64,000 nucleotides of DNA from an uncultured Fluviicola sp. (lineage in GTDB: Bacteria; Bacteroidota; Bacteroidia; Flavobacteriales_D; Crocinitomicaceae): NCBI RefSeq assembly GCF_902168135.1, contig NZ_CABHOL010000043.1, positions 19,969 to 83,968 on the forward strand, in the 5' to 3' direction. Position numbers and translations under genes: made by a program. The notes beneath the pieces are model-generated. The model was not told where the DNA came from. It saw only the letters and a program-made list of their open reading frames with translations, and made no database searches. Shown here in pieces: positions 3,261 to 47,042 of this stretch. Every line of letters starts with the position of its first letter. Position 1 is the first letter of the stretch.

Positions 3261-3264
3261 AAAG

Positions 3265-3272
3265 CAAATTTA
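3265..3272 (-). promoter_or_regulatory. Bacteroidetes sigma-A -7 element (TAAATTTG) for the helicase gene
   Basis: Matches TAnnTTTG; 4 nt upstream of the ATG at 3260. Confidence 0.6.
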
Positions 3273-3393
3273 GCTAATCTTATTGACGCGGTAATGCTTT
3301 TTGAGGATTACATGTTTTCCTAATAAAATGTTAAATTCCGAAAAAAAAGATTTTTCACGCAACTAAATAGTTACTATATCCGTTTAGTCTTCA

Positions 3394-3401
3394 TAGATTT
3401 G
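3394..3401 (+). promoter_or_regulatory. Bacteroidetes sigma-A -7 element (TAGATTTG)
   Basis: Matches TAnnTTTG; 4 nt upstream of the ATG at 3406. Confidence 0.6.
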
Positions 3402-3405
3402 CGTT

Positions 3406-5217: not shown

Positions 5218-5253
5218 AAAAAACCGCAACACTTATATTAAGGCGGGTTTGGA

Positions 5254-5724: not shown

Positions 5725-5779
5725 ACCACAAGTTAATTATAAATCCGTATATTTAAGTGATAAGTTTAACACCTGTGAT

Positions 5780-6400: not shown

Positions 6401-6453
6401 TAGTTCAAATGTTCAAATAGATTCGCTTAAACAACCCTTTGATCTCTTTGAAC
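6401..6453. repeat. GTTCAA/TTTGAAC intergenic element (copy 2)
   Basis: TAGTTCAAATGTTCAAATAGATTCGCTTAAACAACCCTTTGATCTCTTTGAAC aligns with 1923-1976 and starts right after the stop codon. Confidence 0.8.
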
Positions 6454-6505
6454 TTGCTATTATCAAATTGATTTTGAAGAAAGAAATGTTTCGTTAAAGT
6501 TTTGC

Positions 6506-6513
6506 TAACTTTG
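6506..6513 (+). promoter_or_regulatory. -7 element TAACTTTG
   Basis: Exact TAnnTTTG, 4 nt before the ATG at 6518. Confidence 0.6.
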
Positions 6514-6517
6514 CGCC

Positions 6518-29393: not shown

Positions 29394-32279
29394 TTAATTG
29401 ATAATTTGACAGTCGTTTCCTATTTCTATATCTGCCTGGAAATCCAGATTAATGATTCCGAGTAGTTTGACTGAAAATCCGACAGCTCCGTAGACAAATG
29501 TAGGTTTTGGCAATCGACCCTGAAGCAGGGCGGCGGCGTCAATTGAAGCGACCGAATATTCTTTTTTGAGTGTACCGTCATCTTTGTAGCGACGGACACC
29601 CATACCGCCACTCAGCCAGGCATAAACCTGTCCCATGAGATACCAATTGTTGAATCCGACTTTGCTTGTGGAACCCGAGCAATGTGCTGTTGGACTCAGT
29701 TTGAACATGGTAATATCAAAACCTGCACCAACGCTGGCATAAGCATATCCTCTCCAATTCGTTTCTTTCGGGAATTCCCCTCCGAAATTTGCGGCAATCA
29801 TCATTCCGGTAGCAAACCCGTTTCCGGTGCTCACGGCACTCATATCTGTACTGATAATAGGGCTTGAACTAACAAGGTTTGTTACGTAGGACGGCGGCGG
29901 CGGCATCGGGTCGATCTGCGTTCCGATCATGAAATAGGTATTCGCCGTAAACAGGTTTAATACTTCAATGGTTGCCCTGTTCGACGGACGGTTCAACCAA
30001 AAATACCAATCATGTTTGTCAATGTGGATTTTTAAATTACAATTTCCCTGGAGAATTCCCGGAACAATGGCAAGTGCGTCTACTTGTGCATCAAACACTT
30101 TTTCAACGTTGTCGTAGTTCACAGAAATAGCACCTTCTACTTTTGTGCAATTAGCACCTCGCTCTGAACGTTTTACGAGCATAGTCGCCCGCCCGAAGAA
30201 ATTGATATTGGCCAAACCTCCGTTGGCATTGAATTGGATGGAGAAAATAGCTTCGCCGTTCAGGACCGACTCTCCCGGAATGGCCACCAATGCAACACCT
30301 GCACTGAATCCGAGTCCCAGGCTGGGATCAGGTATGAAAGGTATGGCGGAAGAAGTAGGGGCGCCCTGATTTGGATTCATAGCTCCGTTAAATGCCCGGT
30401 CTAGTTTTTGGGCCGGAGTAAGCGTGCTTTTTACTCCGTATTGAACACCTCCGAAAAGATTGGTGATTAAAGCAAACTGACCGATCGGTATAGTTAGTGG
30501 TACGGAAGCATCCACGTACCAGTATCGCTTCGAATTGAGTTTTCCAAATCCAACAGATACTCCGGCAAAATCATTCATGATCGCATTGAGCTTGAATGAA
30601 ATTGCTCCAAAGAACATGTCCCCGTAAACCGGGTCGTCATCACGAAGAGAAAGGATTCCGTTCAATGCAAACGGACTGGTATTAATAGACAGAGCGATAT
30701 CGTATACCTTGAATTTGTCGAATTGCAGTCTTTGTCTTCCGTCTGATCCGGTAACTCTTTTTGTAATGACACCTACAAAAGTAGATGCCCCAAAAGAATT
30801 GGAATTTTCTTCGCCTCCAAGTTTTAAGCTGAGGTCGACTTTTAAGATAACATTGGATTGCGTCAGGCCAAGTTCCAGGTAATTCAGAGAGATTGGAAGC
30901 CTTGCGACTTTGTTGGGTTCTCCGTCTTCGCCAATTTCGTCGCTTGTCAGTGCAAATGTACCGCCGTAAATATAAGGTGCCTGCGTCCCGATGTTTAAGG
31001 ATTGGAAGAGCAATTTGTTCAGTCTTGCTTTAGCTCCGTTATACGTCAGGTTTCCGTTAAGTGTAATGTCAGGAATGAACTTCCCTGAAACAACCTGCAC
31101 ATGGACCATACAGTTAGGTGCCAGCTTCAGGGTGGAGCTGAACATTGGAAGTTGATAGGTATAACTGTTTACTGTTTTTGCAGTGAAATCATAAATAAGC
31201 GCTGAATTATCGTTGGGTTTATAGACTCCTGCACGGTATGCAAATTCAGCATTATTTAAAGGTTCTACGCGGAGTTTTCCGGCCAGTCGACCATCTACCA
31301 GGTGGTTATATTCGATACCCAATACCAGGGAATCAATTGAGAATCCCCAGCTGTCCATATCGCCCTCTCCGACACTGAAAATACCGGTTGCAAAGAAATC
31401 TCCGGAAACACCGTTGTCATCAATCAGAAGATCTGTTACACCAATGGTCGTTTCGCCACTGCTCCTGCTTAGTTTAGGTGGAAGTTTTACGGAGAGGTTA
31501 TGCGCATAAAACCCGGTCCAGTTACCGATTTCAGGATAGAGGTTTTGGGTGGCGGCAGGTAAGATAATTCCGGTAGGATTGATAGAATCGTTGCGGTCAA
31601 CGATCAATTGGTTTACACGGAATTCAAAATCATCCAATCCTTTCACCACAAAAGGATCCATACTGGTCTGGAACATGATTTTGGAAATATCGTCTATATT
31701 GACCTGTATGTTCGCTTTTACCTGTCCTCCGCCTGGTTTATGGATTAATTCCTGGCTAAAAAGGATATCGGCGTTAATGTTAGCCCGCTCGTAACCATTG
31801 CAGCCCCATTGGATGTAATTTGTTCCGTCGCCTTTGAAAACAATGCTGTTCTTTGGTCCCAATTTGATGCGTTGGTCCCCCAAAAGCTTTAAAGTAATTG
31901 GGTTTCCATTACCACCGGGCATAACTCCTTTCGGGTTAAATGAAACACCTTTTGCTGCGAAAGCCAGCTTCCCGTAAGCACCCGGCCAGTCCATGGCCAT
32001 ATAAACATCAAAGGTTGCTCCCTGCGGAGTAAAACGCGCCGAATCAATGCAGATCACGTAAATAATATCACCGATTTTCTTGCAAATTCCGATAGGAAGT
32101 GATGCATGATCAGTAGGCGAAAAGTTCGTAGTCTGCTTGTCAGGATTGACCCGGATAATAGAATCCAGGGTAAGAGCCCTTATTCTGGATTGAGCCAAAC
32201 TAGCAGAGTCAGACTGCGCGTTCCCCTTGAAATTTAGGAAGATGGCGAAAAGAATAAAAAGTAGGTGTCGGGTTTGCAT
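29394..32279 (-). CDS. Large secreted beta-strand-rich hypothetical protein (about 961 aa; start refined to ATG at 32279)
   Basis: Signal peptide MQTRHLLFILFAIFLNFKGNAQ; Gly/aromatic-rich predicted beta strands throughout; no T9SS CTD. Confidence 0.8.
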   Translation of the reverse strand: MQTRHLLFILFAIFLNFKGNAQSDSASLAQSRIRALTLDSIIRVNPDKQTTNFSPTDHASLPIGICKKIGDIIYVICIDSARFTPQGATFDVYMAMDWPGAYGKLAFAAKGVSFNPKGVMPGGNGNPITLKLLGDQRIKLGPKNSIVFKGDGTNYIQWGCNGYERANINADILFSQELIHKPGGGQVKANIQVNIDDISKIMFQTSMDPFVVKGLDDFEFRVNQLIVDRNDSINPTGIILPAATQNLYPEIGNWTGFYAHNLSVKLPPKLSRSSGETTIGVTDLLIDDNGVSGDFFATGIFSVGEGDMDSWGFSIDSLVLGIEYNHLVDGRLAGKLRVEPLNNAEFAYRAGVYKPNDNSALIYDFTAKTVNSYTYQLPMFSSTLKLAPNCMVHVQVVSGKFIPDITLNGNLTYNGAKARLNKLLFQSLNIGTQAPYIYGGTFALTSDEIGEDGEPNKVARLPISLNYLELGLTQSNVILKVDLSLKLGGEENSNSFGASTFVGVITKRVTGSDGRQRLQFDKFKVYDIALSINTSPFALNGILSLRDDDPVYGDMFFGAISFKLNAIMNDFAGVSVGFGKLNSKRYWYVDASVPLTIPIGQFALITNLFGGVQYGVKSTLTPAQKLDRAFNGAMNPNQGAPTSSAIPFIPDPSLGLGFSAGVALVAIPGESVLNGEAIFSIQFNANGGLANINFFGRATMLVKRSERGANCTKVEGAISVNYDNVEKVFDAQVDALAIVPGILQGNCNLKIHIDKHDWYFWLNRPSNRATIEVLNLFTANTYFMIGTQIDPMPPPPSYVTNLVSSSPIISTDMSAVSTGNGFATGMMIAANFGGEFPKETNWRGYAYASVGAGFDITMFKLSPTAHCSGSTSKVGFNNWYLMGQVYAWLSGGMGVRRYKDDGTLKKEYSVASIDAAALLQGRLPKPTFVYGAVGFSVKLLGIINLDFQADIEIGNDCQIIN

Positions 32280-32295
32280 AGTACGAAAGTAATAT

Positions 32296-32303
32296 TTAGA
32301 TTT
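32296..32303 (+). promoter_or_regulatory. -7 element TAGATTTG upstream of the 32346-43712 operon
   Basis: TAnnTTTG match in the 66-bp divergent intergenic region. Confidence 0.45.
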
Positions 32304-32345
32304 GAAATCGCAAACCACTTTGCATAACAGAAACTTAAACGCTAC

Positions 32346-35300
32346 ATGAAATCTAAATCATTCCTGTTCCTGGTCCTCTTATTTCATTGCTTTTCTCACG
32401 CACAAACATTGAAAAATGTAGTTGTGAATTTGGATGCAAGCGGACAAGTCTTTGATATCAAGTATATCACCAGCATGCAGAAATACATCGTTGTGGGGAA
32501 GTTTTCCAGTATTCAGGGACATGCCGTAAATAATATGGCCTTACTTGATCTGAATTTCAATTATGTAAATGCAACTTTTCCAACTGTAAATGATGAAATC
32601 CGCTGTGTGGAGGTTTTTAATGCCAATATATACATCGGAGGCTTATTTACAGTAGTAAATGGTACCAGCCAGGAATGCCTTGCCCGAATGACGATTACCG
32701 CACCTGCAGTTGCAACCGACCCTTATGTGGTTGCCCATCTACCTGCGTTTCAACTTCTGAATAATTTCGCGTCGGCTTATTATGTAGCTGATATGGATCT
32801 AAATGGAAATGAGATTGTAGCGGTAGGTGGTTTTTATGATTCTTCCAGAAATTGTATCGTTGCTTTTAGTGCAAGCTCGGGAGCCCTGGTTTCTACCAAA
32901 TTTACAGGTGGATCCGGAATAGATGAATATTATGACCAATATACCAACTATCCGATTTTCACAGTCGATAAGTTGAATAACAACTATGTGGTTGCTGGTC
33001 CGGCAATGAGAAATTATACCTATGATAATATTACCTATCCGGACGGAACGGAAATGATGCTCTTTAATAACTCGGGGACACAGCTGACGGGGAATACACT
33101 TCCTTCATACCATACCGTGAGTTACCCGAGTTCGACCTATCCTACACACCAGGCAAATGAAATCTCTGTTTTGAATGACAGTATTGTTCTGACTAATTTG
33201 CGTCATGGAAGTGGAGCAATATTGCTTGGAGCCTTGAATATTGTTAATCCTGATTCCTATGAGGTATTGCATCCGGTTGCGTTGACTGGGTATGCGTTGG
33301 GTAATGCAGGAATTGTATCTTATAACAATAATTTCTATTACATCCGCAATAATACCATTGAACGTGGTTCGGTTACCGGGACAATAGGCTCCGGATCGAG
33401 TTTGGCCCTTTCATTTTTGCCTTCGAACAACATTAGTTTGGGAGGTAGTTCGGCATCCCCTTCTTTGTTGGGGAAAATGCTTCAATTGACGAACAACTTC
33501 CTGATCGTTTCCAGTGATAATTTGTCAACCATTGCAGGTCAGTCACGCACAGGTTTGGCCATTATGTGCCTGGAACCGGAAGATGCGAAGAAGATGAATA
33601 ACCTGTATAATATGGCTTCGCTTCCGCCCAATCCACCACCTTTTGAACTGGATACGGTTGTCTGTGCCGGAAATATTAAAGCTTATACGGTTCCGCCCGC
33701 TAAATATGCAAATGGGTACCGATGGACTTACAACGGGCCCGGAGTCAAATATTGCCTGGCTAATACCCTGAGCGAAGTTCCAACAACAGCGAGCAGCTGG
33801 ACAAGCCTCAACGGATCTGTAATAGTCCCTATGTCTGTTACAGCCCATAAAATGTGGTTGATGTTTGATGAATCATTTACCGGTGGAGAGTTGAAAGTAG
33901 AACCTTATTCAACCTGTAATACGACAACGGATTATTTATTCTCAAAAGCGGCTACAACAACACTTGTTTTAGCACCTTTACCGGATTTGACCGTAGCAGA
34001 TTCATTGATGCTGACTTGCTTGAATGATACTGTGAACTTGGTAGCTTCGTCAATTACTCCGGGAGTTAGTTTTTCCTGGTTAAATGAAAATGGAACAACC
34101 ATTAATAACAGTTCCATTCAATTGACGTTGAGTGGTGTGCAATCGGTTTCGTTCCCGCGTTATTTTACTGCTACCGTAAGCCAAACTTCTGGTAATATGT
34201 GTAAAGTAAGAGATAGTGTCTTTGTAGATCGAAGTGTGATCAAACCCGAAATGATTCTGAACGGCTCCCTGCCGATTTGGAATTGTTATTCTGACTCACT
34301 GCAAATAGAAGTGATCGATACCAATTCGCTGGCTCCCGAACTTCCGGTTGTGATTTCATGGAATGAATCTTCTAATGACTTTTCGAATGCCAATCCTTTG
34401 ACCATTTACAGTGATACGGCTTCCATTATTTTTATTGCGACCTATCCTTCTAACGGTTGTGTGGATACGACGCAATTAACCTTAAGTACTGATTTAACTC
34501 CGCCAATTCAACAGATCAATGGGTTTTCTTCCGGTTTTCAGCAAGTTGGCACTATCACCTGTACCAATGATTCGCTGTTGGTAATTTTAAGTGATTATAA
34601 CTCCATTAATACGGATAATTACTGGATCTACCAGGGCGATACTTTGCCCGATTCTGTCTGGGTAACAGCTTCTGATCTGAGTTATCAGGAAGCTGATACG
34701 CTTGGAGCAAACCTGGTTACTGTGACCATTGATGAGTACCGGATTAACCCGCTCAACGGTTGTTCAACTTACGGGCCTTTGGCAGCGGTCGTATTTGATA
34801 TTCGGCAACCTGCAGTTATTGCTTATAGCGGACCTACGAGTTTAACCTGTTCGGCTGATGAGCTGATCCTGGAACATTTTCCGACTTTCGGAATTTCCAA
34901 TCAGGGATGGCTTCTTGCGAACGGAACTTCTAACGGTGCAGATACGCTGGTGGTAAACGGGTCCGGAGAATTCTATTACCAAGTGGAAGGAACAAACGGC
35001 TGTTTAGTTACAGATACGATACAGATTCAGCAAACGAACGAATTACTCTTTGCTTCCGCGATGGATACACTGGTATGTCCCGGAACTCCATTTACGGTAA
35101 GTGCTGTTGCAATAGGTCCGGGAACCATGACTTATTCCTGGTCTGATGGAACCCAGGCAATCACTCCGAATGGTATCGGTGGGGAAGATTCTGTTTTCAT
35201 TGTCCAGGCAGAGAACGGACAAGGCTGTGTTGGAGTTGATACCCTGATGGCTCACATTACCTCTCCGATCAGCGCAACCTTTGAAGCCTTTTCTTCCTGT

Positions 35301-36083
35301 GGAAGCGGTGGTTTTATTCAGGTCGATTCGATCTACGGTGGAGCAGCCGCAGATCTTTCGGATTATTTGTTTGCCTTTAACGGAGGTGCTTACTCCACGA
35401 ATTACAATTTCCCGGTGAACCAGATTGCCACCTATCCGCTTTTGATTAAGGATACACTGGGTTGTGAATATGCATTTACGACAGAAATTACAGGAGTCAT
35501 CCAGAATCCTGGGGTGGACTTCCTGGTGTCAACTTACAACCAGGTAGGAGATACGATTGTTCTGGTCAATATCTCCGGTTTCTCCGATTTCGACGGTGTG
35601 TTCTGGACCTTGCCTTCCGGTGTGGAAATGATTAGTTCCTACGATTCCATTGCAATTTTTACAGCTGCGGATAGTGGTTGGTACCAAATCCAGTTTACGG
35701 GCTTCCTGATCGATACAGCTGCAAACCCGGCTGACACTTGCTTTTATTCTTTCGATAAGTATGTTTACTTCGGTAATTTCGCTATGAATTTCGGAGATTC
35801 GGCAGTTGATAACAGTATCAGCAATGTACAGCTTTATCCGAACCCGATTTCGGCAAACCAAAGTCAAGGTGTTACACTGAGCTTTAATATCGCAGGTCTG
35901 CAGCACTATGAAGTGATTTTTACCAGCAGTTTGGGAGAAGTTCTGAATTCCATTTCGGATGAAGGGACCGCGGAAGGCGATATTGTAAAAACATATAATC
36001 TGCCTCCATTAGCTTCTGGAACTTACCTGATTCATATTTTGGCCGAGTACGGTGCTGCACAAATTAAACTGATTGTGCAATGA
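32346..36083 (+). CDS. T9SS type A sorting domain protein: N-terminal beta-propeller-like repeats plus Cys-containing Ig-like repeats
   Basis: Signal peptide; repeats IVVGKF/IYIGGLFTVVNG/IVAVGGF; Ig-like repeats (LTC..DTVNL, NGC...DT); CTD LYPNP...SSLGEVL...LASGTYLIHI...IKLIVQ. Confidence 0.85.
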   Translation: MKSKSFLFLVLLFHCFSHAQTLKNVVVNLDASGQVFDIKYITSMQKYIVVGKFSSIQGHAVNNMALLDLNFNYVNATFPTVNDEIRCVEVFNANIYIGGLFTVVNGTSQECLARMTITAPAVATDPYVVAHLPAFQLLNNFASAYYVADMDLNGNEIVAVGGFYDSSRNCIVAFSASSGALVSTKFTGGSGIDEYYDQYTNYPIFTVDKLNNNYVVAGPAMRNYTYDNITYPDGTEMMLFNNSGTQLTGNTLPSYHTVSYPSSTYPTHQANEISVLNDSIVLTNLRHGSGAILLGALNIVNPDSYEVLHPVALTGYALGNAGIVSYNNNFYYIRNNTIERGSVTGTIGSGSSLALSFLPSNNISLGGSSASPSLLGKMLQLTNNFLIVSSDNLSTIAGQSRTGLAIMCLEPEDAKKMNNLYNMASLPPNPPPFELDTVVCAGNIKAYTVPPAKYANGYRWTYNGPGVKYCLANTLSEVPTTASSWTSLNGSVIVPMSVTAHKMWLMFDESFTGGELKVEPYSTCNTTTDYLFSKAATTTLVLAPLPDLTVADSLMLTCLNDTVNLVASSITPGVSFSWLNENGTTINNSSIQLTLSGVQSVSFPRYFTATVSQTSGNMCKVRDSVFVDRSVIKPEMILNGSLPIWNCYSDSLQIEVIDTNSLAPELPVVISWNESSNDFSNANPLTIYSDTASIIFIATYPSNGCVDTTQLTLSTDLTPPIQQINGFSSGFQQVGTITCTNDSLLVILSDYNSINTDNYWIYQGDTLPDSVWVTASDLSYQEADTLGANLVTVTIDEYRINPLNGCSTYGPLAAVVFDIRQPAVIAYSGPTSLTCSADELILEHFPTFGISNQGWLLANGTSNGADTLVVNGSGEFYYQVEGTNGCLVTDTIQIQQTNELLFASAMDTLVCPGTPFTVSAVAIGPGTMTYSWSDGTQAITPNGIGGEDSVFIVQAENGQGCVGVDTLMAHITSPISATFEAFSSCGSGGFIQVDSIYGGAAADLSDYLFAFNGGAYSTNYNFPVNQIATYPLLIKDTLGCEYAFTTEITGVIQNPGVDFLVSTYNQVGDTIVLVNISGFSDFDGVFWTLPSGVEMISSYDSIAIFTAADSGWYQIQFTGFLIDTAANPADTCFYSFDKYVYFGNFAMNFGDSAVDNSISNVQLYPNPISANQSQGVTLSFNIAGLQHYEVIFTSSLGEVLNSISDEGTAEGDIVKTYNLPPLASGTYLIHILAEYGAAQIKLIVQ

Positions 36084-37813
36084 TGAAAGTGGTTTTTTGT
36101 TTTTGCTTCCTGCTGCCTATCCTTGCGTTTTCCCAAAACCTGGATAAGATCGGTAAAAAAGGAATGATGAAAGTTTCCGGTGGATTGAACTTTTCTTCGA
36201 ATTTGAATCAGGCCTACGGAAAGACTCTGGCCAGAGATCCGTTCTCCTGGGTGGTTGGTGGAAATGTAACTTTTTCGGTGCTTGATTTTTCCATGCCTTT
36301 TACATTTTCGTACACCAACCAGGGCGGAAATTTTACGCAGCCCTTCAATATAACGGCACTGCATCCGACTTACAAGAAGATCAAAGGACATGTGGGAGTC
36401 ATTTCCATGTCGTTTTCACCTTACACGCTTGCCGGATTGAACTTTGCAGGTGCAGGACTGGAATACACACCGGGTAAATGGAAGATCCAGGGTTTTGGAG
36501 GAAGACTGAAAAAGCAGGTAGCCTTTATCCCGGAGATCAACAACATTGAAACGATGGCCTACAGAAGATGGGGCGGTGGAATTTCTGTCGGATATGAAGA
36601 CAAAGGTTATGGAGCTACTTTTATTTTGTTGAAAGCCTCTGATCAGCGTACTTCATTGGCAGTCGTTCCAAACAGCGCAACCATTACTCCGATGGACAAT
36701 ATCGTGGCGTCTCTGGCTTTGAAAGGAAAAATCGGGAAATCGATCCTGATGACTGCGGAATATGCATCCAGTATTCTTACACGAAATACTGAGCTTACGG
36801 AAAAGATTGAACGCAAGACGTATGCAAAAACCATGTCGCCGCTTGTAAACGGAAACCAGTCTACGATTGCTTTCGGGGCTTTCAACGGGTCGATCAATTA
36901 TCAGTACAAGGTGTTCTCCATCGGGGCGAAATACGAACGGATTGATCCGGGATACACCACACTTGGCGGTATGTACTTCAACAACGATTTGGAGAATATT
37001 ACGCTTACACCGGCAATTGCACTTTTCAGGGGGAAACTGAACATCAATATCAATACCGGAGTTCAACGCAACAACCTGAATAACCTGAGTGCTAATGAAA
37101 TGAAACGCTGGGTAGGAACAATTGCCCTTTCAAGTATGCCTTTCAAAAACTTTACGGTTTCCGGAAATTACTCGAATTTCTCTTCTTTCTCGAAACGGAA
37201 TCCGGCTTCAGATCCTTTCTACAACCCGGTCGGAGACACCCTGAATTTCTACCAGATTTCTACGAATGCGAGCGCAAGCATGTCTTACAATTTTGGGAAG
37301 AAGCGTAAAAGCACTTTGATGTTGAACGGGAATTATTCCGTAAGCGAAAACATTACCGGACGCCTGGAAGATGCTGCCGCTTTCGGCTTCAATGTTTCGG
37401 GAACGAACCAAACCGGTCCTGTAACGGTATTAACCGGGATGTTCGGTCACACACTTTCTTTTGAGAAATCGAAATCTTCATTGGGCTGGACAATCAACGG
37501 AAGCCAGTCGAGGGCCATGAGCAATGAAAACCTGTATTTCGGTCCGGGAGTGAATTACTCGAAACCAATTTTGAAGTGGATCAACCTCACCACAGGACTT
37601 ACCTACAATCAGAATTACACGAATTCAAAGCTTGCCAACCACGTCATGAATACGCGGGTCGGACTTTCGTTTAAGCCTACCTGGTGGGACAAAAAATTCG
37701 GTTCGTTGAACTTTTCACTGAACGGAAGTTTGGTGAACCGGTTTGCAGTTGCCAAAACCTCCAAAAACCAGGGAGATATTGCCCTTATTTTCAATCTTAA
37801 CTACGGATTCTAA
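36080..37813 (+). CDS. Outer-membrane beta-barrel protein, 577 aa
   Basis: Signal peptide; alternating amphipathic strands; C-terminal beta-signal FNLNYGF; ATGA overlap with the upstream gene. Confidence 0.8.
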   Translation: MMKVVFCFCFLLPILAFSQNLDKIGKKGMMKVSGGLNFSSNLNQAYGKTLARDPFSWVVGGNVTFSVLDFSMPFTFSYTNQGGNFTQPFNITALHPTYKKIKGHVGVISMSFSPYTLAGLNFAGAGLEYTPGKWKIQGFGGRLKKQVAFIPEINNIETMAYRRWGGGISVGYEDKGYGATFILLKASDQRTSLAVVPNSATITPMDNIVASLALKGKIGKSILMTAEYASSILTRNTELTEKIERKTYAKTMSPLVNGNQSTIAFGAFNGSINYQYKVFSIGAKYERIDPGYTTLGGMYFNNDLENITLTPAIALFRGKLNININTGVQRNNLNNLSANEMKRWVGTIALSSMPFKNFTVSGNYSNFSSFSKRNPASDPFYNPVGDTLNFYQISTNASASMSYNFGKKRKSTLMLNGNYSVSENITGRLEDAAAFGFNVSGTNQTGPVTVLTGMFGHTLSFEKSKSSLGWTINGSQSRAMSNENLYFGPGVNYSKPILKWINLTTGLTYNQNYTNSKLANHVMNTRVGLSFKPTWWDKKFGSLNFSLNGSLVNRFAVAKTSKNQGDIALIFNLNYGF

Positions 37814-40800
37814 TGCGTAATTACTTTTTCCGAATAAAATTTCGTTTACTCTTTTTGCTCCTGCTTTTTGCCGGATCAGGAATCCATGCACAGGTTTATC
37901 CGGTTCAGGTAACCGTTGTACCGACACCGCCTCACCGCAACTATTTGAATTCATTTTCGGAGCAGGGGGCATTGAATGTGTTCCTGACACTGACTGATTT
38001 CAATTCGGGACCCATTTCTGTGAAACTGAAAATGGAACTGAATGGTCCGGGATACCAATTCCGCTCCCTTCCGAATAACCTGATTTATGTCCTGAATCCG
38101 GGACAACCGGTGCAGGTTCCCATGGAAGACCTGGCGGTGTTCTTCAGTTCTACCGGGCAGACCCTGAATTTCAATCCGGGGAAACTACCGGAAGGAAATA
38201 CCTCTATCTGCATTGATGTGATTAAAAACCAAAGCGGTGAAGTGCTTTCCCAAAATGGCTGCGGTTACTTTTACATGGGATACGGTCAGCCGGCATCTTT
38301 GCTGCAGCCGGCTTGTAATGCTACTGTTCAGATCCCTGCGGGATACCCGGCTTCCACCGATCTACGGACCCTTCCTTTGCAGTTCAATTTTATTCCGGCA
38401 CTTGCACCGATCGGTTTGCAGCAGGAAGTAGAAAACACCTTGTATATCTACAATTGGCTGGGCACAGTGAATACCAATCCTCCTCTTACACCGAATGGCC
38501 TGGCTTTGGCTATGGATCCGGTGGAATTGGGTCCAATTACGGCTCACACGCTTTTACCGATCAATAATCAGCTCATTGTGGGGCAGGAATATGTTTGGTA
38601 TGTGAAGACCAGCCTGAACGGTTCCACGAATCAGTTCCAGAATGGCGGCTGGTCAGCTCCGTGCAAATTTAAGTATGGTGCAGCGCAGTCTATTGAGGAA
38701 GCCCTGGCTAACGGACTTTCCGTGGAGTGGGTAGACCTGGTTTCCAATTCCGAATCCAAAGGAACGGGAACCTGGAAAGTGGTGAAGGAAGATCCGAACT
38801 CATCGGCTACGTTCAACCAGTTTATTCTAAAATACCGCAGAAAAGTTCCTGCCGGTCAGCAGCCCTTCGAATGGTTCTCCGATACGGTCAACGATTTGAG
38901 TAAGGCCATTTACCAGCTGGAGCCTGCAACGACTTACGAAGCGAGCGTGGCAGGACGTTTGGGGAGTTTTGTTTCCGAGCCAACCGAAATACGCACTTTC
39001 ACTACAGCTCCGCCAAGAACTTATAGTTGTGGAGTAGCCAATTTCCCGGGAAGAGCAACCGCATTCCAGCCTTTGGAATACGCAGATCCTGGAATGAAAG
39101 TCAAGATCGGGATGTTCCAGCTGGAGTTTGTTTCCGTTCAGAATACCGGTCAGCCCGGGCATTTCAGTGGTACGGGACTCATCCCGGTAGATTTCCTCTT
39201 CGGAGCGGAAGCACGGGTGAAGTTTGACAACCTGAAGATCGACAAGGAATACGATGTATGGGAAGGAACGGCGCATGTGATCACAGATGGACTGGATGCC
39301 TGGCTGGAAGATCAGTACCAGCAGTTCCAGGACCCGATCTTTGTGAACGGAACGGTTGATTCGGCTTATGTGTCCGATTCTATTGCACATGTGGTAATTG
39401 ATGGAATAGATACCACATTTACTTTCCCTTGTGCCACTTGTCCGGTTATCATTAATGACGTAGCAGGAAACCAGGTTACGATCTATCCGAACGGAACGGT
39501 GATCTGGAGCAGTTACCTCGATGTGTCGGATGAACAGCTGGATGTTCCGGATACGGAGATTGGTGTGTTTGAGCAGCATGCACAGGAAACCGGTGGATTT
39601 GATCCTTTCGAGCACATCGAATGGAACGCGAATTACGAGATTATCCGGACCTCGAATGCTGTCAATTATTTTGTGGCCAATAAATCGTTGATAAAAGGAC
39701 AACCCGACAAAGTTTCCCTGAGTGTTCCGGAAAACAAGTACACGGCTACCAATGTGCAGCTTTCCTGGGCCGGACTTGCAACACCTTTGGCGCCGGCTTC
39801 AAGCACAGTTTCAAGCGGCAAAAGAGTATTCGTATTCGATTTACCGGCATTCAATGATGATGACGAATTTGCCATTTACGCGATCTCCGATAATCTGAAG
39901 ATCGGTAAGTTGAATGTGGTGGTTTATGAATTAATTCAAAAAAATATAGTTGTTATTCCTATTGGTGGAACTATTGATGGTAGTCAATTAAGAACCTATT
40001 TGAATACTACTCTGGGAGAGTCTGGTATTGATTTCACTATAACTATTAGTGATACTACAGGGGTTGGTAAATATTCATCACTCAGTAGTCTGAATATTCC
40101 AGATGCAACTTTAATGAGTAAGTATTCTGGTAAGATGCGCCAGATCAGGAACAGCTATTTTGATACACATGAAGAAGAAGATAATTCTTTCTATTTTTTC
40201 ATAGTTTCTTCTTTGATGGATACGGTTCATAATCTTCCCGTAGATGGTTATATGGTTCGAGGTAAAAATATCGGATTCATCCAGTCAGGAAGCACCTTCC
40301 GAACATATGCCCATGAGTTGGGACATGGGGCAGGTTTTTTGGAACATAGCTGGAAAAATAATGGGCCTGAAAGAGGTAGTTCTAATAATTTAATGGATTA
40401 TGTCAGTGATGATAATTTATTATTCAGCCAATGGGAGGAGTTAAGAAATCCAAACGGCACTGGTTTATGGGATGAAGAGGAAGATAATGAATCTGACGTA
40501 AGCGGCAATTATCTCAAGCGACTTTTGCCTTTGAAGAATGCTAATAATACGTTTACATTTTTTGATCCCTCTGGTGGAATTATATCAATCCCTGTGGATG
40601 GATTAACTAATATTTGTATTTCAGATAATAACTCTTATAAAAGTTTTTCCGAAAACACCAGATTAAATGTTCCTGCTGGGACTTTAGTTGAGTTTAGCTA
40701 TAATGGTAAGCGATATTTTAGTTTTGGTACTGAAACTGATTTTGCCGGATATGCATACAAAGAGGGGGATACCAGGGTTTACTATGAAGACCCCTATTCT

Positions 40801-43263
40801 AAGGAAATTCCCGAAAGTGATCGACAGGTAATACTAGGTTTTCCATATTATCCTGATGCTCAGGAAATTGTAAATCGAATTCCTGAAGTTAATGGAGTTG
40901 TAACCTATTCCTTAGATAACATTCAGTTTTCGGATCTTCCAACCTATGCTTTCCGATTGGTTAAGCCAACAAGTTCTTTTTCATGGCCCTCCGAAACAAT
41001 AACTTATCTTAATAAACCCTCAAAGAACTTTGATAAGTTCGCGAGTTTCATGGAGAAATTCGACTATTATGATGGTCCATTGGTTGATATTAAGAATTTT
41101 AATATCAGTTGGAATGATTATGCAAAAGGTTTTTTGGTATTAAATAGTACGGAATTTTTTGGGTATAACTACAATCAAGCTATTCAATGTGCGAATTATA
41201 TTAATTCTAATCCTGGAGTATATATTAGTATTCAGGCTTGTAATTCAGTGGATTTTCCTATAAGAAATCATAAACAATTAAATACTTACCTGTATGAAGA
41301 TGAATTATCACCTATTCCAACGGATGGTAATTTTTCCTACTGGAGGCCAATTAATCAGTATTCGGAAGCACAAAAAGAACATTATATAGATCAGTTTAAG
41401 GGGACTTTAAGGGCTAGGACTGATAATGCAACATCGTTTAATAGCGAGATTGAAAATTGGCCTATCAATAATCCGGATGGATTAAATACAAAATTGGCCG
41501 GTCTATGTGAAGGTCATTATTCTGAATTGTCAGTTAAAGCACGAAAGCAAATTATAAAAACCCTTGCACAATCAAATGATATTGATGAGTGTGATATGGG
41601 AATCTTTAGTTCTTCAACTACCTGTTCTGAAGGACAAATTTTGGCCGTTTTAAGAAATGCGCCTGCCACACAGTATAAAGAAATAGTAACTTTTTTAAAG
41701 GAAAACGATAATTTATATTTCAGGAGACTCTACAAGGGGATTGATAATCATACATGGGGTGCTTATAATTTTGAGGAGTTCACAAAACTGCTTACCGCTA
41801 TTGTTACTAATGCCTTTGACGATTACGAAGGTCTGTTGGATAATAATGCTGTGATCTATTATGAGAGCATTGCAATGGATAATTACATTTCAATGTATGA
41901 GCAAAAGCAAAGATATTTGGGTAGTTCGTTAGTTGAGTCTGATCCGGCAGGTAAGGTTTGGATTAACATGCATTTTCAATATGGCAATGGTTATATTCCT
42001 CCAAGTGAGCTTAAACACCAATACAATCCTTTGGATGTTATATTGATATATGGTGCCAGTGAGTATAATTATTCTTCCCAATATTTCAAATTAGCCGCTG
42101 GAGAAATGAAATTAGTACCAGCCTTTTATTTGGCGGCAGTGAATAAATCCGGGCAAGATAGAAAATTTGAATACGAATTAAATGTAGTAACAACTGTTGC
42201 TGGTGGAATAATTATGCTGCCTTTAGCTGAGGCTCAGGTTGCTGCGGGTGGTATTGCAGAATTGTGTGCTGTAACTGAGGTTATTGCATATTCTGTTCAG
42301 GCACCAATTATTGTAACGGATGTTTTAAATACATTGGATCCAAATTCGGAATCCTATTATATCATTTCGAAATTGAATGATTTTTGCACGGCTGCCATGC
42401 TATTTTCTGGCGGTGCAATGATGATCTCAAATCTTGATAATGCCGCAAACTTTGTCAAAAATATAGATCTTGACAAATTGAAAAATATCCCTAGCCAGGT
42501 TTCAATTCAGTTTCAGGACAAGATCAGGAAATTGCGTGATTTTGCATTAGCTCTTTTAAAGAAGTTTCAGAGAACGGAAACATTATTAGAAATGCTTAAT
42601 GGACCATCGCTTAAATCTTTGAAGAATAATGTGAACGGCCTTAGCGAAGCTCTTTATACTCAATTTTTGGATGATTTTTCAAAAAGTCACTTAGAGGATT
42701 TGAAAAAACTTCAGAATGAAGGTTTATTTGAAATTTGGAAAACCGGTGTTCGAAGTAGTAATATAGAGGAGTTAAGAGAAGTAGCAAAAATACCAAATCT
42801 GAGATCAGAATATGCCCAAAAAGTAAAAGCATTGGCTCAGAAGAAAATCGAATTAGAAAGTCAGGGTAAGACCCCACTTGAAATTGCACAGACACTTTTT
42901 GGAAATAGAAGAGACTTAACCATACATTACAAAAAGATAACTCCGGATGATTTAATGGAATGGATCTATAAGCGGAATCATTTTGAGTATGTTGTAAAAG
43001 GAACCGGTGACAAATGGGGACTTACCTGGCAAGGCGCATTAAAAAAATATTCTAAAGATATTGTGGAAGATCTTTCTCAAGCGACTCCTAGCCAAATGAA
43101 TGAAATTTATAGTAAAATTGCAGGAAGCGCATCGGAAATATTTGAAGGAGCGGAAGACAAAATAGCTCTGGGGCAAAGATTTTTGACTTATTTTGATGGA
43201 AAGGTTACTCCAACAGAATTTTTATCTTTAGAGCGAGTATTATTGAAATATAGAATGATGTGA
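37813..43263 (+). CDS. 1816-aa TANFOR/FN3-type secreted protein with internal HExxH metallopeptidase and C-terminal polymorphic-toxin-like domain
   Basis: Signal peptide; QVYPVQV TANFOR-like N-terminus; FN3 (YQLEPATTYEASV); AHELGH...NLMDY; hydrophobic hairpin; RRDL..YK..TP..L...IY.RN..Y...GD..G tip; GC drop at about 39.9 kb; TAATG overlap with the barrel gene. Confidence 0.8.
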   Translation: MRNYFFRIKFRLLFLLLLFAGSGIHAQVYPVQVTVVPTPPHRNYLNSFSEQGALNVFLTLTDFNSGPISVKLKMELNGPGYQFRSLPNNLIYVLNPGQPVQVPMEDLAVFFSSTGQTLNFNPGKLPEGNTSICIDVIKNQSGEVLSQNGCGYFYMGYGQPASLLQPACNATVQIPAGYPASTDLRTLPLQFNFIPALAPIGLQQEVENTLYIYNWLGTVNTNPPLTPNGLALAMDPVELGPITAHTLLPINNQLIVGQEYVWYVKTSLNGSTNQFQNGGWSAPCKFKYGAAQSIEEALANGLSVEWVDLVSNSESKGTGTWKVVKEDPNSSATFNQFILKYRRKVPAGQQPFEWFSDTVNDLSKAIYQLEPATTYEASVAGRLGSFVSEPTEIRTFTTAPPRTYSCGVANFPGRATAFQPLEYADPGMKVKIGMFQLEFVSVQNTGQPGHFSGTGLIPVDFLFGAEARVKFDNLKIDKEYDVWEGTAHVITDGLDAWLEDQYQQFQDPIFVNGTVDSAYVSDSIAHVVIDGIDTTFTFPCATCPVIINDVAGNQVTIYPNGTVIWSSYLDVSDEQLDVPDTEIGVFEQHAQETGGFDPFEHIEWNANYEIIRTSNAVNYFVANKSLIKGQPDKVSLSVPENKYTATNVQLSWAGLATPLAPASSTVSSGKRVFVFDLPAFNDDDEFAIYAISDNLKIGKLNVVVYELIQKNIVVIPIGGTIDGSQLRTYLNTTLGESGIDFTITISDTTGVGKYSSLSSLNIPDATLMSKYSGKMRQIRNSYFDTHEEEDNSFYFFIVSSLMDTVHNLPVDGYMVRGKNIGFIQSGSTFRTYAHELGHGAGFLEHSWKNNGPERGSSNNLMDYVSDDNLLFSQWEELRNPNGTGLWDEEEDNESDVSGNYLKRLLPLKNANNTFTFFDPSGGIISIPVDGLTNICISDNNSYKSFSENTRLNVPAGTLVEFSYNGKRYFSFGTETDFAGYAYKEGDTRVYYEDPYSKEIPESDRQVILGFPYYPDAQEIVNRIPEVNGVVTYSLDNIQFSDLPTYAFRLVKPTSSFSWPSETITYLNKPSKNFDKFASFMEKFDYYDGPLVDIKNFNISWNDYAKGFLVLNSTEFFGYNYNQAIQCANYINSNPGVYISIQACNSVDFPIRNHKQLNTYLYEDELSPIPTDGNFSYWRPINQYSEAQKEHYIDQFKGTLRARTDNATSFNSEIENWPINNPDGLNTKLAGLCEGHYSELSVKARKQIIKTLAQSNDIDECDMGIFSSSTTCSEGQILAVLRNAPATQYKEIVTFLKENDNLYFRRLYKGIDNHTWGAYNFEEFTKLLTAIVTNAFDDYEGLLDNNAVIYYESIAMDNYISMYEQKQRYLGSSLVESDPAGKVWINMHFQYGNGYIPPSELKHQYNPLDVILIYGASEYNYSSQYFKLAAGEMKLVPAFYLAAVNKSGQDRKFEYELNVVTTVAGGIIMLPLAEAQVAAGGIAELCAVTEVIAYSVQAPIIVTDVLNTLDPNSESYYIISKLNDFCTAAMLFSGGAMMISNLDNAANFVKNIDLDKLKNIPSQVSIQFQDKIRKLRDFALALLKKFQRTETLLEMLNGPSLKSLKNNVNGLSEALYTQFLDDFSKSHLEDLKKLQNEGLFEIWKTGVRSSNIEELREVAKIPNLRSEYAQKVKALAQKKIELESQGKTPLEIAQTLFGNRRDLTIHYKKITPDDLMEWIYKRNHFEYVVKGTGDKWGLTWQGALKKYSKDIVEDLSQATPSQMNEIYSKIAGSASEIFEGAEDKIALGQRFLTYFDGKVTPTEFLSLERVLLKYRMM

Positions 43264-43712
43264 TTTTATTGAACTTTGGAAATTATAAAATAGCAAGAAA
43301 AATTCTGATTGAAAATGAGATAATTCAGTTTTTTGAGGAAGAACCATATTCAGCTTCAGCTACTGAGAAAGATGGTCTTTATGAGGTGCTTAATAAGCAG
43401 TTGATAGCAATCTTTTCGGATAAGAAGAAAAATTACTTGTATTTGAATGGTCAGTTATTTCTATTAACTCCGGAAATATCAATTGAATATTTTATTGCTC
43501 AGGATATGCATACCAGGAGCTGGTTTAAATTATTTAAGTCGGAGGATTTAATTTTCAATATAAATTATTTAAATCCACATAAGCCTTTTGTTTTGTCCGA
43601 TCCTTTTTTTTCGGATGAAGATTATGAGACAACTAACTTTGCTTCTCATCTTGCCCAGTGGATATCGAAAATAAAAAAAGAGAATAATGTTGTCTTGTTT
43701 CACAAGCCATAA
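43260..43712 (+). CDS. Putative cognate immunity protein, 150 aa
   Basis: GTG start overlaps the toxin stop (GTGA); small, low GC, aromatic/acidic, no signal peptide. Confidence 0.6.
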   Translation: MILLNFGNYKIARKILIENEIIQFFEEEPYSASATEKDGLYEVLNKQLIAIFSDKKKNYLYLNGQLFLLTPEISIEYFIAQDMHTRSWFKLFKSEDLIFNINYLNPHKPFVLSDPFFSDEDYETTNFASHLAQWISKIKKENNVVLFHKP

Positions 43713-43861
43713 TCCTTTATAAAGAATAATTAAGGATTGGTTAAACCTCAATTTGCATCTGATTTTTACAAGTATTTGTTCCAACGGATTAAAGCTGTTA
43801 AACTCAGATTTTACAATACCACCATCAAGAATTTTGCTTATGATATGATTGTTCTGAATGA

Positions 43862-44035
43862 ATTACAGGTAATGCATCGGTTGAAGTATACGATTTGAAC
43901 GAGAAATTGCTCTTGACTGAGAAAAATATCAGCCCGGAAGGCCCGCTTTCACTAGAGGCACTTAGCGGAAAAGTTTTCCTGATCAAAATCCTTGAGAACG
44001 GAAGAAGCATGTAGCAAAGAGTGGTGAAGCTTTAA
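43862..44035 (+). pseudogene. Remnant T9SS type A CTD of a destroyed cargo gene
   Basis: Reads ITGNASVEVYDLNEKLLLTEKNISPEGPLSLEALSGKVFLIKILENGRSM*QRVVKL*. No start codon; premature TAG at 44012; aligns with the CTD of 44193-47042 (ATVQVFDLNGKIL...LSGLDGNMFVVRII...QKRVVKY). Confidence 0.75.
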
Positions 44036-44052
44036 AAGTTATGGAACTTACG

Positions 44053-44085
44053 GTGCTGTTCCATTTCCCGGAACAGCACTTTTTG
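44053..44085 (+). terminator. Rho-independent terminator
   Basis: Perfect 10-bp stem GTGCTGTTCC / GGAACAGCAC followed by TTTTT. Confidence 0.8.
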
Positions 44086-44192
44086 AGTTTCGTCCGATCG
44101 GATAAAAATGAATCCGACCTACCAACCCTTTCCTTTAAACTCTCGTTCACCTCTAAAAGTGAATAGATGTTTAACACCTAAAAAAAATCACC

Positions 44193-47042
44193 ATGAAGAT
44201 AATTTCTACCTGTCTCGTGCTATTAATCGGAGGAACTGCTTTTTCTCAATTTAATAGGACCTACTTACATGCAACACCATCCAGGACTACCTTTTCAGGT
44301 TACACCTATTTTGATGATCAAAATCAGCAGCACCTGGTAAGTTTGGGCGCTGGTTCCGCCAGCCAGATCGAATTAACAACCCAGAAATTAGATGACCTGG
44401 GAGAAGTACTGGATGTAGTTCGTCAAAACTACACACTTACGCTTCCTTCCGGAATTCAAAATGAATACCTGCTGGGAGTGTTTGAAAACCAAACGGAGCG
44501 GTTTTATGTACTGGAAGCCGGAAGCAATTCGGCTTTGAATATTGTTTGGCTGAAAGTCAATAAAAGTACGGGAGCATTGATCAGTTCCCAGGTAACATCC
44601 AGTACATACAGGATTGGTTACTTTGAAGCAAAACTGATCGGAGACGAATTGGTTTCCTATCAGGTGAAAAGTACGGGCGGCTTGGTTCGTCTGGCTGTCA
44701 ATACAACTTCTTTTGGAGCTCCTTCTGAAGAAATGGTCGATGCTTCAATTACCATGTCAGTTACCTATAGCAATACAATCAACGGTTGGAAAAACGGGAA
44801 CTTATTGCTAATGAATGGAGTGGAAAAAGTGATTTGCTACGGAGGCTTAACGAATGCGAAGATTTTCACAAGAAATGCCGCAAATAATTATACTGCCATA
44901 ACTACCGGTGTAGCTGCGAACAGATCCGTAAGTTCGTTTTTAGTTAATCCAACAACCATTGGAATAACAAATGGAATGACTGTGGAGCATTACAACGCTG
45001 CCGGCGTACTGGGAACTTCGGGAACTTTTTCCGTAAATTCTATCAAGCCGATTAACCAGGTTGCTTTTTTCAATAACAGTTATCATATTTTTAGTAAGGC
45101 CATGGGAACAAATGCTCCTTCCACTTTCTACAAGGCAGATGCATCCTTTATGGTAACAGATTCATTAACGGGTATTGTACCGGCAGTTTACCAGTTCTTT
45201 TCTGCTAACGGGATGAACTATATTTTAGGAAACGGACTTGTAAAAGGAATTTCGGAAGATCTGTCGGGAACGGCAAGTGCCGGAACAAGCATTTTTTGTG
45301 AGAAATATACGCAAAAACCAATCCTGGACTTTTCGGAATACAACGTGAAAATGAAATCCGGGTCGAAAACAATGGCCAATATCGGATTGGGAACAAAAGT
45401 GATCGCAACAACACTTGATAATCTTGCTGGATTAACTTATGATAAACGCTCGGCGGTGTATAACCTATCCGAAAGATTTGTAGGATTTGTAAATTCGGAG
45501 GTTCTTGCGAATGATCGTTCTACTTATTTGGATCAGTTTGACGAACTTCCCGGTCCATATACTACAAATGCCTCTTACAATGAAGTACAGGAAGCAAAAT
45601 ACAATCGTCCGTACCATGTAAGTCTTCAAATGATTGAAGACCACATTGATTCCGTTCAGATGGGGTCGTCGGCATACATTCCTGTTTTCGGGATCAGAAA
45701 TTGGCCCGCTCACGGAAACACAGCTGTCGGTCAGGCTGCAGATCTTGCTGAATTTGTAGACGTTAATTCCAACGGTATTTATGAACCTTTACAGGGGGAT
45801 TATCCGAAGATTTATGGGAATGATTGTGTATTCAGCATTACACACTACAGGGATAACGGAGATGCCGGAAAAGCATTTGAAATTCACAGCTACGTTTATA
45901 CACAGTTATGCGATACCAGTGAAACTTTTGATAATGTATTGATGCGTAAGGTTAAATTGATTTCGCGCGGAGTTGAAATGGATTCGCTTTACTTCGGAGG
46001 AAATTTCGATGGAGACATGGGGAATTACAACGATGATTACATAGGTACGAATGTCGGGTTGGGAATGATTTACAATTACAATGCAGATTTAAATGACGAA
46101 GCAAATTCCGGCAGACTTGGTTTCAACGATACACTTCCTGCGCAGGGGGTTATGGTGTTGAAAGGATTCAAACAGGAAAATGATGGTCTGGACAATGAAA
46201 TTGGTATCATGCCCGGAGAATCTGTAAATGGTTACGGTTTTAACGATGGAGTGATTGATAACGAATACTCCGGTTTATTTGCTTCGACAATATTTACCGG
46301 AACAAACTCTGCTGCCGGACAATCAGATCCTACGAATTCGACTCAATTGGTTAATTACTTAAACGGGCTTTGGCAGTTTGGTGATCAGATTTACTATGGA
46401 GGAACTGGATTTCCGGGTGCACCTTGTGTAGGAACAATCGAATCCAATTTCATGTATACCGGAGATTCGGATCCGCTGCATTTCGGAACAGGAGGTGTTG
46501 ATCCCGGGTTTGTGTGGTCAGAATATGAACCATGCGGAAGCGGATCAACTTCAAATCCGGCAGGCGACCGCCGTGGGATCTACTCTTTTGGAAAAACTGC
46601 TTTGAGTAATGGTGACATGGTCGAATTGGATTATGCATACCTGGTTAAACGTTTGGATGCACCGGGGACAACCATTTTTGAACCGGTAACAGATCTGTTT
46701 GTGAAAGCAGAAGCGGTTAGAAATGCATTCCTGAGTAATGATGGACCTTGTGGAATTAATTTTGATCCGATCCCGGAAGATTTAGGTGTAGGGGAAAATA
46801 TGATTGATGGTGATTTGTACACACTTTATCCGAATCCTACGACAGGATCTATCCGAATCAACGGAATTTCCGGGGCGGGAGCAACGGTTCAGGTTTTCGA
46901 CCTGAACGGGAAAATCCTTCAAACAATTCCGGATTACAAAAATATGGAAGTCCTTGATCTTAGCGGATTGGATGGAAATATGTTTGTGGTTCGCATTATA
47001 GACGGATCCAAGTATTCGCAGAAAAGGGTCGTGAAGTATTAA
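44193..47042 (+). CDS. T9SS type A sorting domain protein, 949 aa
   Basis: Signal peptide; NWPAHG...LAEFVDVNSNGIYEPLQGDYP module; CTD LYPNPTTG.I.ING...VFDLNGK...RVVKY. Confidence 0.88.
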   Translation: MKIISTCLVLLIGGTAFSQFNRTYLHATPSRTTFSGYTYFDDQNQQHLVSLGAGSASQIELTTQKLDDLGEVLDVVRQNYTLTLPSGIQNEYLLGVFENQTERFYVLEAGSNSALNIVWLKVNKSTGALISSQVTSSTYRIGYFEAKLIGDELVSYQVKSTGGLVRLAVNTTSFGAPSEEMVDASITMSVTYSNTINGWKNGNLLLMNGVEKVICYGGLTNAKIFTRNAANNYTAITTGVAANRSVSSFLVNPTTIGITNGMTVEHYNAAGVLGTSGTFSVNSIKPINQVAFFNNSYHIFSKAMGTNAPSTFYKADASFMVTDSLTGIVPAVYQFFSANGMNYILGNGLVKGISEDLSGTASAGTSIFCEKYTQKPILDFSEYNVKMKSGSKTMANIGLGTKVIATTLDNLAGLTYDKRSAVYNLSERFVGFVNSEVLANDRSTYLDQFDELPGPYTTNASYNEVQEAKYNRPYHVSLQMIEDHIDSVQMGSSAYIPVFGIRNWPAHGNTAVGQAADLAEFVDVNSNGIYEPLQGDYPKIYGNDCVFSITHYRDNGDAGKAFEIHSYVYTQLCDTSETFDNVLMRKVKLISRGVEMDSLYFGGNFDGDMGNYNDDYIGTNVGLGMIYNYNADLNDEANSGRLGFNDTLPAQGVMVLKGFKQENDGLDNEIGIMPGESVNGYGFNDGVIDNEYSGLFASTIFTGTNSAAGQSDPTNSTQLVNYLNGLWQFGDQIYYGGTGFPGAPCVGTIESNFMYTGDSDPLHFGTGGVDPGFVWSEYEPCGSGSTSNPAGDRRGIYSFGKTALSNGDMVELDYAYLVKRLDAPGTTIFEPVTDLFVKAEAVRNAFLSNDGPCGINFDPIPEDLGVGENMIDGDLYTLYPNPTTGSIRINGISGAGATVQVFDLNGKILQTIPDYKNMEVLDLSGLDGNMFVVRIIDGSKYSQKRVVKY

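Follow-up and report, generated by a model that had tools for sequence, protein, structure and literature searches.

Why does one uninterrupted gene consist of two parts that differ so strongly in base composition? This question is raised by P0001, a gene for a protein of 1816 amino acids (aa) which lies in a 64,000-nucleotide (nt) stretch of DNA from an uncultured Fluviicola sp. (the window; positions 19,969 to 83,968 of contig NZ_CABHOL010000043.1, assembly GCF_902168135.1). A preliminary description of the window had claimed a sharp drop in G+C content (GC) within this open reading frame (ORF) near codon 700, and it regarded 39900-43860, coding for about 1100 aa of the protein and for a downstream gene, as replaced by a single in-frame recombination. 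Our analysis indicates that, very probably, P0001 is a polymorphic toxin with a constant N-terminal domain (N-domain), and that the region from 39931 to ~43856 is an exchangeable low-GC cassette which entered by recombination.

Base composition and reading frame

The ORF (37813-43263, + strand) contained no internal stop across its 1816 codons, and the frame was intact through the switch, as had been claimed. Sliding profiles of GC and of GC at third codon positions (GC3), which the preliminary description had proposed as a check, showed a clear step at the left edge and a recovery on the right: GC was ~0.49 at 38000-39850 and ~0.35 at 39850-43900, with a drop spanning ~150 bp, and it was back to ~0.41 near 43900. 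The per-base maximum-likelihood change point in the ORF (two-state likelihood scan) fell at nt 39820 (support 39796-39929, GC 0.491 vs 0.345, log-likelihood ratio 58), and that of GC3 fell at codon 704 (support 698-708, 0.52 to 0.28, log-likelihood ratio 54), close to the codon first named. The low-GC stretch reached ~43856, passing through the overlapping 150-aa ORF. The genome used as reference comprised 4.38 Mb with a GC of 0.416, and GC3 of its ORFs of at least 300 aa was 0.431 on average (standard deviation 0.055). The GC of the N-domain (0.485) was in the top 0.3% of 2.1-kb windows of this genome and that of the cassette (0.343) was in the lowest 0.9% of its 4-kb windows; therefore, the two compositional extremes of the genome abut within a single intact frame. 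The GC step is genuine and far beyond chance. A vertically inherited gene could in principle show such a step without any transfer, through amino-acid composition, codon constraints or faster evolution of its C-terminal part, and Asn, Lys, Ile and Tyr are indeed abundant in the C-terminal half, as are Gly, Pro and Ala in the N-domain. However, the step was greatest at third codon positions.

Replacement in relatives

We compared the locus with those of P0003 (P3; L051), P0004 (P4; L053) and P0005 (P5; L054) and with G011, which represents a separate lineage. The N-domain was 86-96% identical at the nt level in all four up to 39931, and the sequence was then unrelated. Similarity resumed at 43856 in P0003 and P0004, at 44009 in G011 and at 44106 in P0005; the left end is common to these lineages and the right ends differ by lineage. 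For example, G011 was 95.2% identical to the window at 30141-39932 and 44009-45617, with no alignment in between (4076 bp in the window vs 4600 bp in G011). The 150-aa gene lies inside this replaced block, in line with the claim that the downstream gene was exchanged together with the toxin part, and the breakpoints at 39931/39932 and 43856 agree with the extent first proposed within ~30 bp. When aa 1-700 and the later part were compared separately, again as proposed, close relatives were 96-99% identical at aa 30-700, 45-67% identical at aa 706-880 and unalignable beyond ~aa 890, where they had other lengths and toxin domains. This observation argues against vertical inheritance of the whole gene, although, across the family, evolution is generally faster in the peptidase domain than in the N-domain, which would favor it.

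At the left junction (J1; Table 1), the whole family has the conserved motif K[IL]GK[LM][NS]V. In a structural model of aa 560-900 (predicted local distance difference test, pLDDT, 89), J1 is located in a turn of two residues that leads from the final strand of the Ig-like sandwich into the first strand of the peptidase, at a domain boundary. Besides, the last ~600 bp of the N-domain (window 39313-39900) had a mosaic identity to G011, P0003 and P0004 (78% to 100%), and this pattern points to additional short tracts of recombination close to J1 on its upstream side. A site-specific element was rejected as the source of the block because no flanking direct or inverted repeats and no integrase or transposase gene within the block were found.

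History of the block

The 1816-aa and 150-aa genes were also present in Logan assemblies of four sequencing runs, as P0181 in L056-L058 (one strain) and as P0182 in L059, and the cluster table lists seven contigs. Between the window and L056, we found 105 differences in 2119 bp of the N-domain (5.0%) and 13 in 333 bp of the right flank (3.9%), vs 25 in 3892 bp of 39932-43856 outside one 33-bp patch (0.64%). The flanking differences nearest to the block were at 39910 on the left and 43902 on the right (Fisher p=6.6e-27). Divergence of the cassette is ~8-fold below that of the flanks, and the borders of low divergence coincide with the compositional borders. On these counts, the 3.9-kb block, including the peptidase, coalesces far more recently than its flanks. 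This pattern is the strongest support for an exchangeable unit, and such a reduction is expected for cassettes that spread under toxin/immunity selection. It is also the opposite of fast evolution, and together with the third-position step and the unalignable C-termini it makes a history without transfer very improbable. Replacement by in-frame recombination, the core of the earlier claim, is borne out both by the breaks in relatives and by the separate history of the block in L056.

The 33-bp patch is located in the immunity gene; of the 42 differences that separate the cassettes of the window and L056, 17 fall within it. The region around it was also the most diverged in comparison with L059. 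It could represent a micro-conversion tract or a hypervariable contact loop.

As the genome is a draft of 56 contigs and the identical stretch at J1 is short, we considered whether the junction might be an assembly chimera of two co-occurring strains, fused at the shared 35-bp J1 sequence. However, the full-length gene, the 150-aa gene and the gene order were recovered from the four runs, representing two further strains (L056/L057/L058 and L059), and L054 holds a remnant of the immunity gene of the same cassette at the same locus. Because the same gene was recovered in at least four independent metagenome assemblies, the probability of a chimera is negligible.

Nested junctions and number of events

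Comparison within the family shows a nested set of three junctions: J1 precedes the peptidase, J2 follows it and J3 precedes the tip. P0003 and P0004 had a common peptidase allele (96% aa identity) and differed only past the WDEEED motif of J2. In P0003, P0004, P0005 and L059, both GC3 and identity broke after the peptidase, at codon 875-895, and GC3 of the peptidase module was 0.45-0.55; the corresponding values were 0.27 for the window and L056 and 0.33 for G011, whose GC3 break was at J1. Within another subclade, breaks fell at ~aa 900 in three pairs (G033/G030, G007/G030 and G031/G030) and at ~aa 1550 in G033/G007. P0002, with an N-domain only 38% identical to that of P0001, shared the middle region (50-80% at the aa level) and diverged beyond RKLRDFALALL, the J3 motif. 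Since the identity and GC3 breaks of most relatives fall at J2, this junction is the normal border, with J1 as an exception seen in two lineages, the window strain and G011. The peptidase therefore belongs to the exchangeable unit, as had been claimed, here and in G011, but not as a rule of the family, in view of the breaks of P0003, P0004, P0005 and L059.

The claim of a single event fared differently in its two parts: the replacement of the block stood, and its attribution to one event is one of two possible readings. L059 had a native-type peptidase (GC3 0.46) that was 67% identical at the nt level to that of the window and 85% to that of P0003, and its middle region, tip and immunity gene were window-like (82-96%), near the level of the flanks (83-91%). 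Therefore, the peptidase module and the remainder of the block have separable histories. One alternative is a stepwise assembly: the middle region, tip and immunity gene would predate the split of the window and L059, a foreign low-GC allele would later have replaced the 0.55-kb J1-J2 peptidase segment, and the completed block would then have passed between the lineages of the window and L056. The composition of L059 is what such a course would leave, and L054 retains aa 75-150 of a window-type immunity gene (88% aa and 90.6% nt identity) downstream of a different cassette. However, replacement of this patch would require two crossovers, both in frame and 0.55 kb from each other, with a donor of only ~65% identity. 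Moreover, J2 is the commonest junction, and L059 could equally have arisen by recombination at J2, acquiring only the distal portion of an imported cassette made up of peptidase and cargo; the GC3 of the peptidase (0.27) also matches that of the remaining block (0.28), fitting a single source. We consider stepwise assembly a serious contender, with somewhat less than an even chance.

Some observations weigh against entry of the cassette as a whole. The distal part of the block may be old in the clade rather than a recent import, with the peptidase as the only clearly derived allele. In the comparison with L056, both borders of low divergence are within ~45 bp of the heterology borders, which is tighter than simple homologous exchange predicts. 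As for a donor, no relative of aa 901-1816 was found among the contigs of species-representative genomes, and a search of 5.8 billion proteins found P0002 (59% identical) as the only relative of the middle region outside the P0001 cluster.

Toxin family and operon

Relatives found via the N-domain end in WHH, EndoU, two deaminase families, colicin-DNase, RES or PT-TG domains. These unrelated toxin domains identify a polymorphic toxin family, and P0001 belongs to this undescribed Fluviicola/Crocinitomicaceae family, which includes G035/P0007 of F. taffensis. Three features of polymorphic toxins (sensu Zhang et al. 2012) were found: highly identical N-domains with unalignable C-termini; a co-varying small downstream gene, the 150-aa gene being replaced together with the tip in G011, P0003, P0004 and P0005; and recombinational diversification with orphan modules, seen as clean breakpoints and as remnants in L054, L060 and L055.

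The N-terminus, MRNYFFRIKFRLLFLLLLFAGSGIHAQ, resembles a signal peptide, and an FN3 module was detected in the N-domain by profile search. Apart from a weak Reprolysin_4 match and a chance match to HAMP, a Pfam scan of the whole protein found nothing. In several Fluviicola genomes the toxin gene follows two others in a conserved operon of three genes (~1215-1263 aa, ~575-610 aa and 1363-2026 aa). The two upstream partners in the window (1245 aa and 577 aa; 32346-37813) both have a signal peptide and are conserved alongside the toxin gene across Fluviicola. The 1245-aa partner had a weak match to the C-terminal domain of the type IX secretion system (T9SS; Por_Secre_tail), and the partners otherwise had no profile match. 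The 577-aa partner, which ends in ...FNLNYGF, may be an outer-membrane barrel. Both are likely export or display partners.

Modules of the cassette

At the nt level, the peptidase of the window was 64-67% identical to native-type alleles (P0003, P0004, P0005 and L059) and 53% identical to that of G011. In its zinc-binding motif HELGHGAGFLEH, the third His is one residue beyond the canonical HExxHxxGxxH spacing. Reprolysin_4 was borderline at HELGH, with 23.4 bits for the isolated domain against a cut-off of 22 and 19.1 bits for the whole protein. A Foldseek search for the peptidase fold with the two-domain model of aa 560-900 was dominated by Ig-like matches, and a family profile against PDB sequences found FN3 only. 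The peptidase probably serves self-processing.

Table 1. Features of the P0001 locus (positions in the window).
Feature	Position	Strand	Remarks
P0001 polymorphic toxin gene	37813..43263	+	1816 aa; Sec signal peptide, constant N-domain, predicted zincin peptidase, middle region with hydrophobic helices, tip
Constant N-domain	37813..39931	+	aa 1-706; signal peptide, FN3-like module at aa ~300-396, Ig-like beta sandwiches; GC 0.49, GC3 0.52
Junction J1	39898..39930	+	encodes KIGKLNVVVYE, aa 696-706, last strand of the Ig-like domain; relatives diverge at the next codon
Peptidase module	39931..40467	+	aa ~707-885; foreign low-GC3 (0.27) allele
Zinc-binding motif HELGHGAGFLEH	40312..40347	+	H834, E835, H838 and H845 invariant in 29 family members
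NLMDY, Met-turn-like	40387-40401	+	D862 and Y863 invariant in 29 members; M861 conserved in at least 90%
Junction J2, WDEEED motif	40468..40485	+	aa 886-891; usual constant/variable border; L059 window-like again from here
Middle region	40486..42525	+	aa ~892-1571; 50-80% aa identity, common to P0002 only
Junction J3, RKLRDFALALL motif	42526..42558	+	aa 1572-1582; P0001 and P0002 diverge beyond
Toxin tip	42559..43260	+	aa ~1583-1816; all-helical; AlphaFold2 (AF2) pLDDT 97
Candidate immunity gene	43260..43712	+	150 aa; GTG start overlapping the toxin stop by 4 nt; low GC
33-bp patch in the immunity gene	43395..43427	+	aa 46-56, KQLIAIFSDKK
Non-coding low-GC cassette tail	43713..43856	.	right junction at ~43856
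Fossil of 473-aa Por_Secre_tail gene	43862..44035	+	last 57 codons (T9SS C-terminal domain); premature TAG at 44012-44014
Intrinsic-terminator-like hairpin	44052..44080	+	11 pairs and T run; from the lost 473-aa gene

The middle region contains hydrophobic Gly/Ala-rich segments at 42178-42318 and 42382-42435, about 310-340 aa before the C-terminus. Segments of this kind are present in most long family members, some 200-550 aa before the C-terminus, and absent from the three short ones, P0008, P0011 and P0012, of which two end in lipase-like tips. This distribution suggests that the segments serve membrane translocation of tips that act in the cytoplasm. Searches of Pfam, NCBIfam and PDB sequences found no match for the middle region, the tip or the immunity protein.

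The genome itself contained no paralogues or orphan cassettes of the block, and the only match was a weak one to an 869-aa protein (G000:C13:12716-15319, - strand). This paralogue contains the Ig-like and peptidase-like region, in which the zinc site is degenerate (HEIAC), as well as hydrophobic segments. It ends in a GxSxG (HSMGF) hydrolase domain that shares homology with the lipase-like tips of P0008 and P0012, and many Fluviicola genomes have copies (866-925 aa).

For the tip fold, no PDB match was found at E<=0.001 despite the confident model, and no Pfam or NCBIfam model applied. Matches to the tip were found in 202 cluster representatives, where it forms the C-terminus of RHS, PAAR-like, WXG100, PT-TG and LysM proteins, and it looks like a widespread toxin domain, so far uncharacterized. 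Its conserved residues are R, Y, K, T, N, Y, G and D, with no His or Glu among them. The Rehh DNase (bioRxiv 2026) was considered as an identity for the tip and set aside. The immunity gene had only four homologues, three of which could be placed on contigs, all at the P0001 locus, orphan copies included. As its domain also ends RHS, PAAR-like and WXG100 proteins, the tip is presumably toxic, and the 150-aa protein would confer immunity to it.

Right flank and traces of serial displacement

Beyond the right junction, the window retains a fossil of a 473-aa Por_Secre_tail gene, which is intact in L051 (16800-18221) and L053. G011 retains only ~9 codons of this gene, and L054 and L059 none. Displaced modules also occur in other relatives. 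Downstream of a deaminase toxin, L060 carries two orphans, a 148-aa homologue of the immunity protein (58.5% identical) and a lipase-like tip fragment, and L055 has an array of tip-immunity pairs, with two truncated tips homologous to that of the window. In L043 (F. taffensis; 1011-6900), a long array of small low-GC ORFs lies downstream of the toxin, and two of these ORFs start with MVKVV(D/E)G(V/A)V(S/N)GAGS, echoing the "...GLVKVVDGVVSEAGS" which the F. taffensis toxin itself carries just ahead of its tip. These two ORFs look like orphan tip modules bearing a junction motif.

Proposed course and its meaning

From these comparisons we infer roles for the peptidase and middle region, an export route, the functions of toxicity and immunity, and the number and direction of events. 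The constant region (aa 1-706) would couple the protein to the two co-transcribed secreted upstream partners. The cassette, drawn from a low-GC gene pool, would consist of a zincin peptidase that probably processes the protein itself, a ~690-aa middle region whose hydrophobic helical hairpin probably mediates entry into the target cell, a ~230-aa helical tip and a cytoplasmic 150-aa immunity protein. The coding sequence of the N-domain up to J1 may act as left homology for recombination with divergent alleles of other strains or species, the left crossover being placed within the short conserved stretch that encodes the last Ig-like beta-strand. The right end would be produced by an illegitimate or microhomology event inside the neighboring T9SS-cargo gene, leaving the fossil of its C-terminal domain, and toxin/immunity selection could then spread the entire block.

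In the usual picture, a polymorphic toxin has a constant delivery part and a small swappable tip. The locus described here provides a clean natural series within a single species complex, with one gene cut at three nested points, and the largest unit, ~1110 aa, carries the presumed processing peptidase and entry region alongside the toxin and immunity gene. The series marks module borders in a Bacteroidota toxin family for which there is no Pfam or NCBIfam model. Cassette exchange in polymorphic toxins is a known principle; what is new is the undescribed Bacteroidota family and the unusually large, hierarchically divisible unit.

Comparison with known systems

TANFOR-class toxins (Jana, Salomon & Bosis 2020, PMC7073777) are similarly large Bacteroidota proteins with an N-terminal Sec signal, immunity genes directly downstream and T9SS-substrate genes (Por_Secre_tail, Fn3) as neighbors. 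We found a comparable setting here, with a signal peptide and Por_Secre_tail in the next downstream gene and, weakly, in the 1245-aa upstream gene. However, the N-domain had no NCBIfam match, TIGR02542 (TANFOR) included, at E<=10 (hmmscan). A scan of the whole genome gave no TANFOR match either, but its control panel was also empty, and it is weaker than the direct hmmscan. In the absence of a TIGR02542 match, membership was rejected, and P0001 is therefore not of this class despite the similar setting. The conserved internal zincin peptidase and the fixed three-gene operon with the 1245-aa and 577-aa partners also differ from the class so far as PMC7073777 describes it. That work raises the question of the export route (T9SS-associated?) of such toxins. 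A possible, though rather doubtful, extension of our results is an undescribed, non-TANFOR class of Bacteroidota polymorphic toxins, whose export relies on a T9SS-anchored partner and on a 577-aa barrel-like protein dedicated to this role, and whose peptidase is itself polymorphic and able to travel with the cargo. If so, alleles of the peptidase would be matched to a cleavage site or cargo, diversification would be hierarchical (at the peptidase, the entry region and the tip), and 3.9-kb cassettes would sweep between strains.

In the PVC-metallopeptidase class (Zhang et al. 2012, PMC3482391), an HExxH zincin precedes the variable toxin region, and processing of the toxin by self-cleavage is expected. 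The peptidase of that class (PMC3482391) is a constant N-terminal part, whereas in the P0001 family it is constant in most relatives and inside the exchanged block in the window and G011. The motifs also differ, the P0001 peptidase having HExxHxxGxxxH followed by NLMDY, which is metzincin-like, and the PVC class HExxHxxQ...E.

The P0001 locus shares several features with CdiA-CT and Rhs-CT systems, namely a short peptide motif at the constant/variable border, recombination of the variable part together with the immunity gene, and accumulation of orphans downstream. The general scheme of such modules is set out by Zhang et al. 2012 (PMC3482391). A Pfam scan of P0001 found no TPS domain, FHA repeat, RHS/YD repeat, VENN or PT-TG motif, which places it outside the CdiA (type V secretion system) and Rhs families. 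Rhs elements carry AT-rich tips on a GC-rich core. CdiA-CT/CdiI and Rhs-CT/RhsI modules are exchanged after VENN or PxxxxDPxGL motifs, and the exchanged unit is roughly 100-300 aa with one junction. In contrast, the unit exchanged in P0001 comprises ~1110 aa, in agreement with the earlier claim that it exceeds typical swaps of this kind, and its family is divided at three nested junctions.

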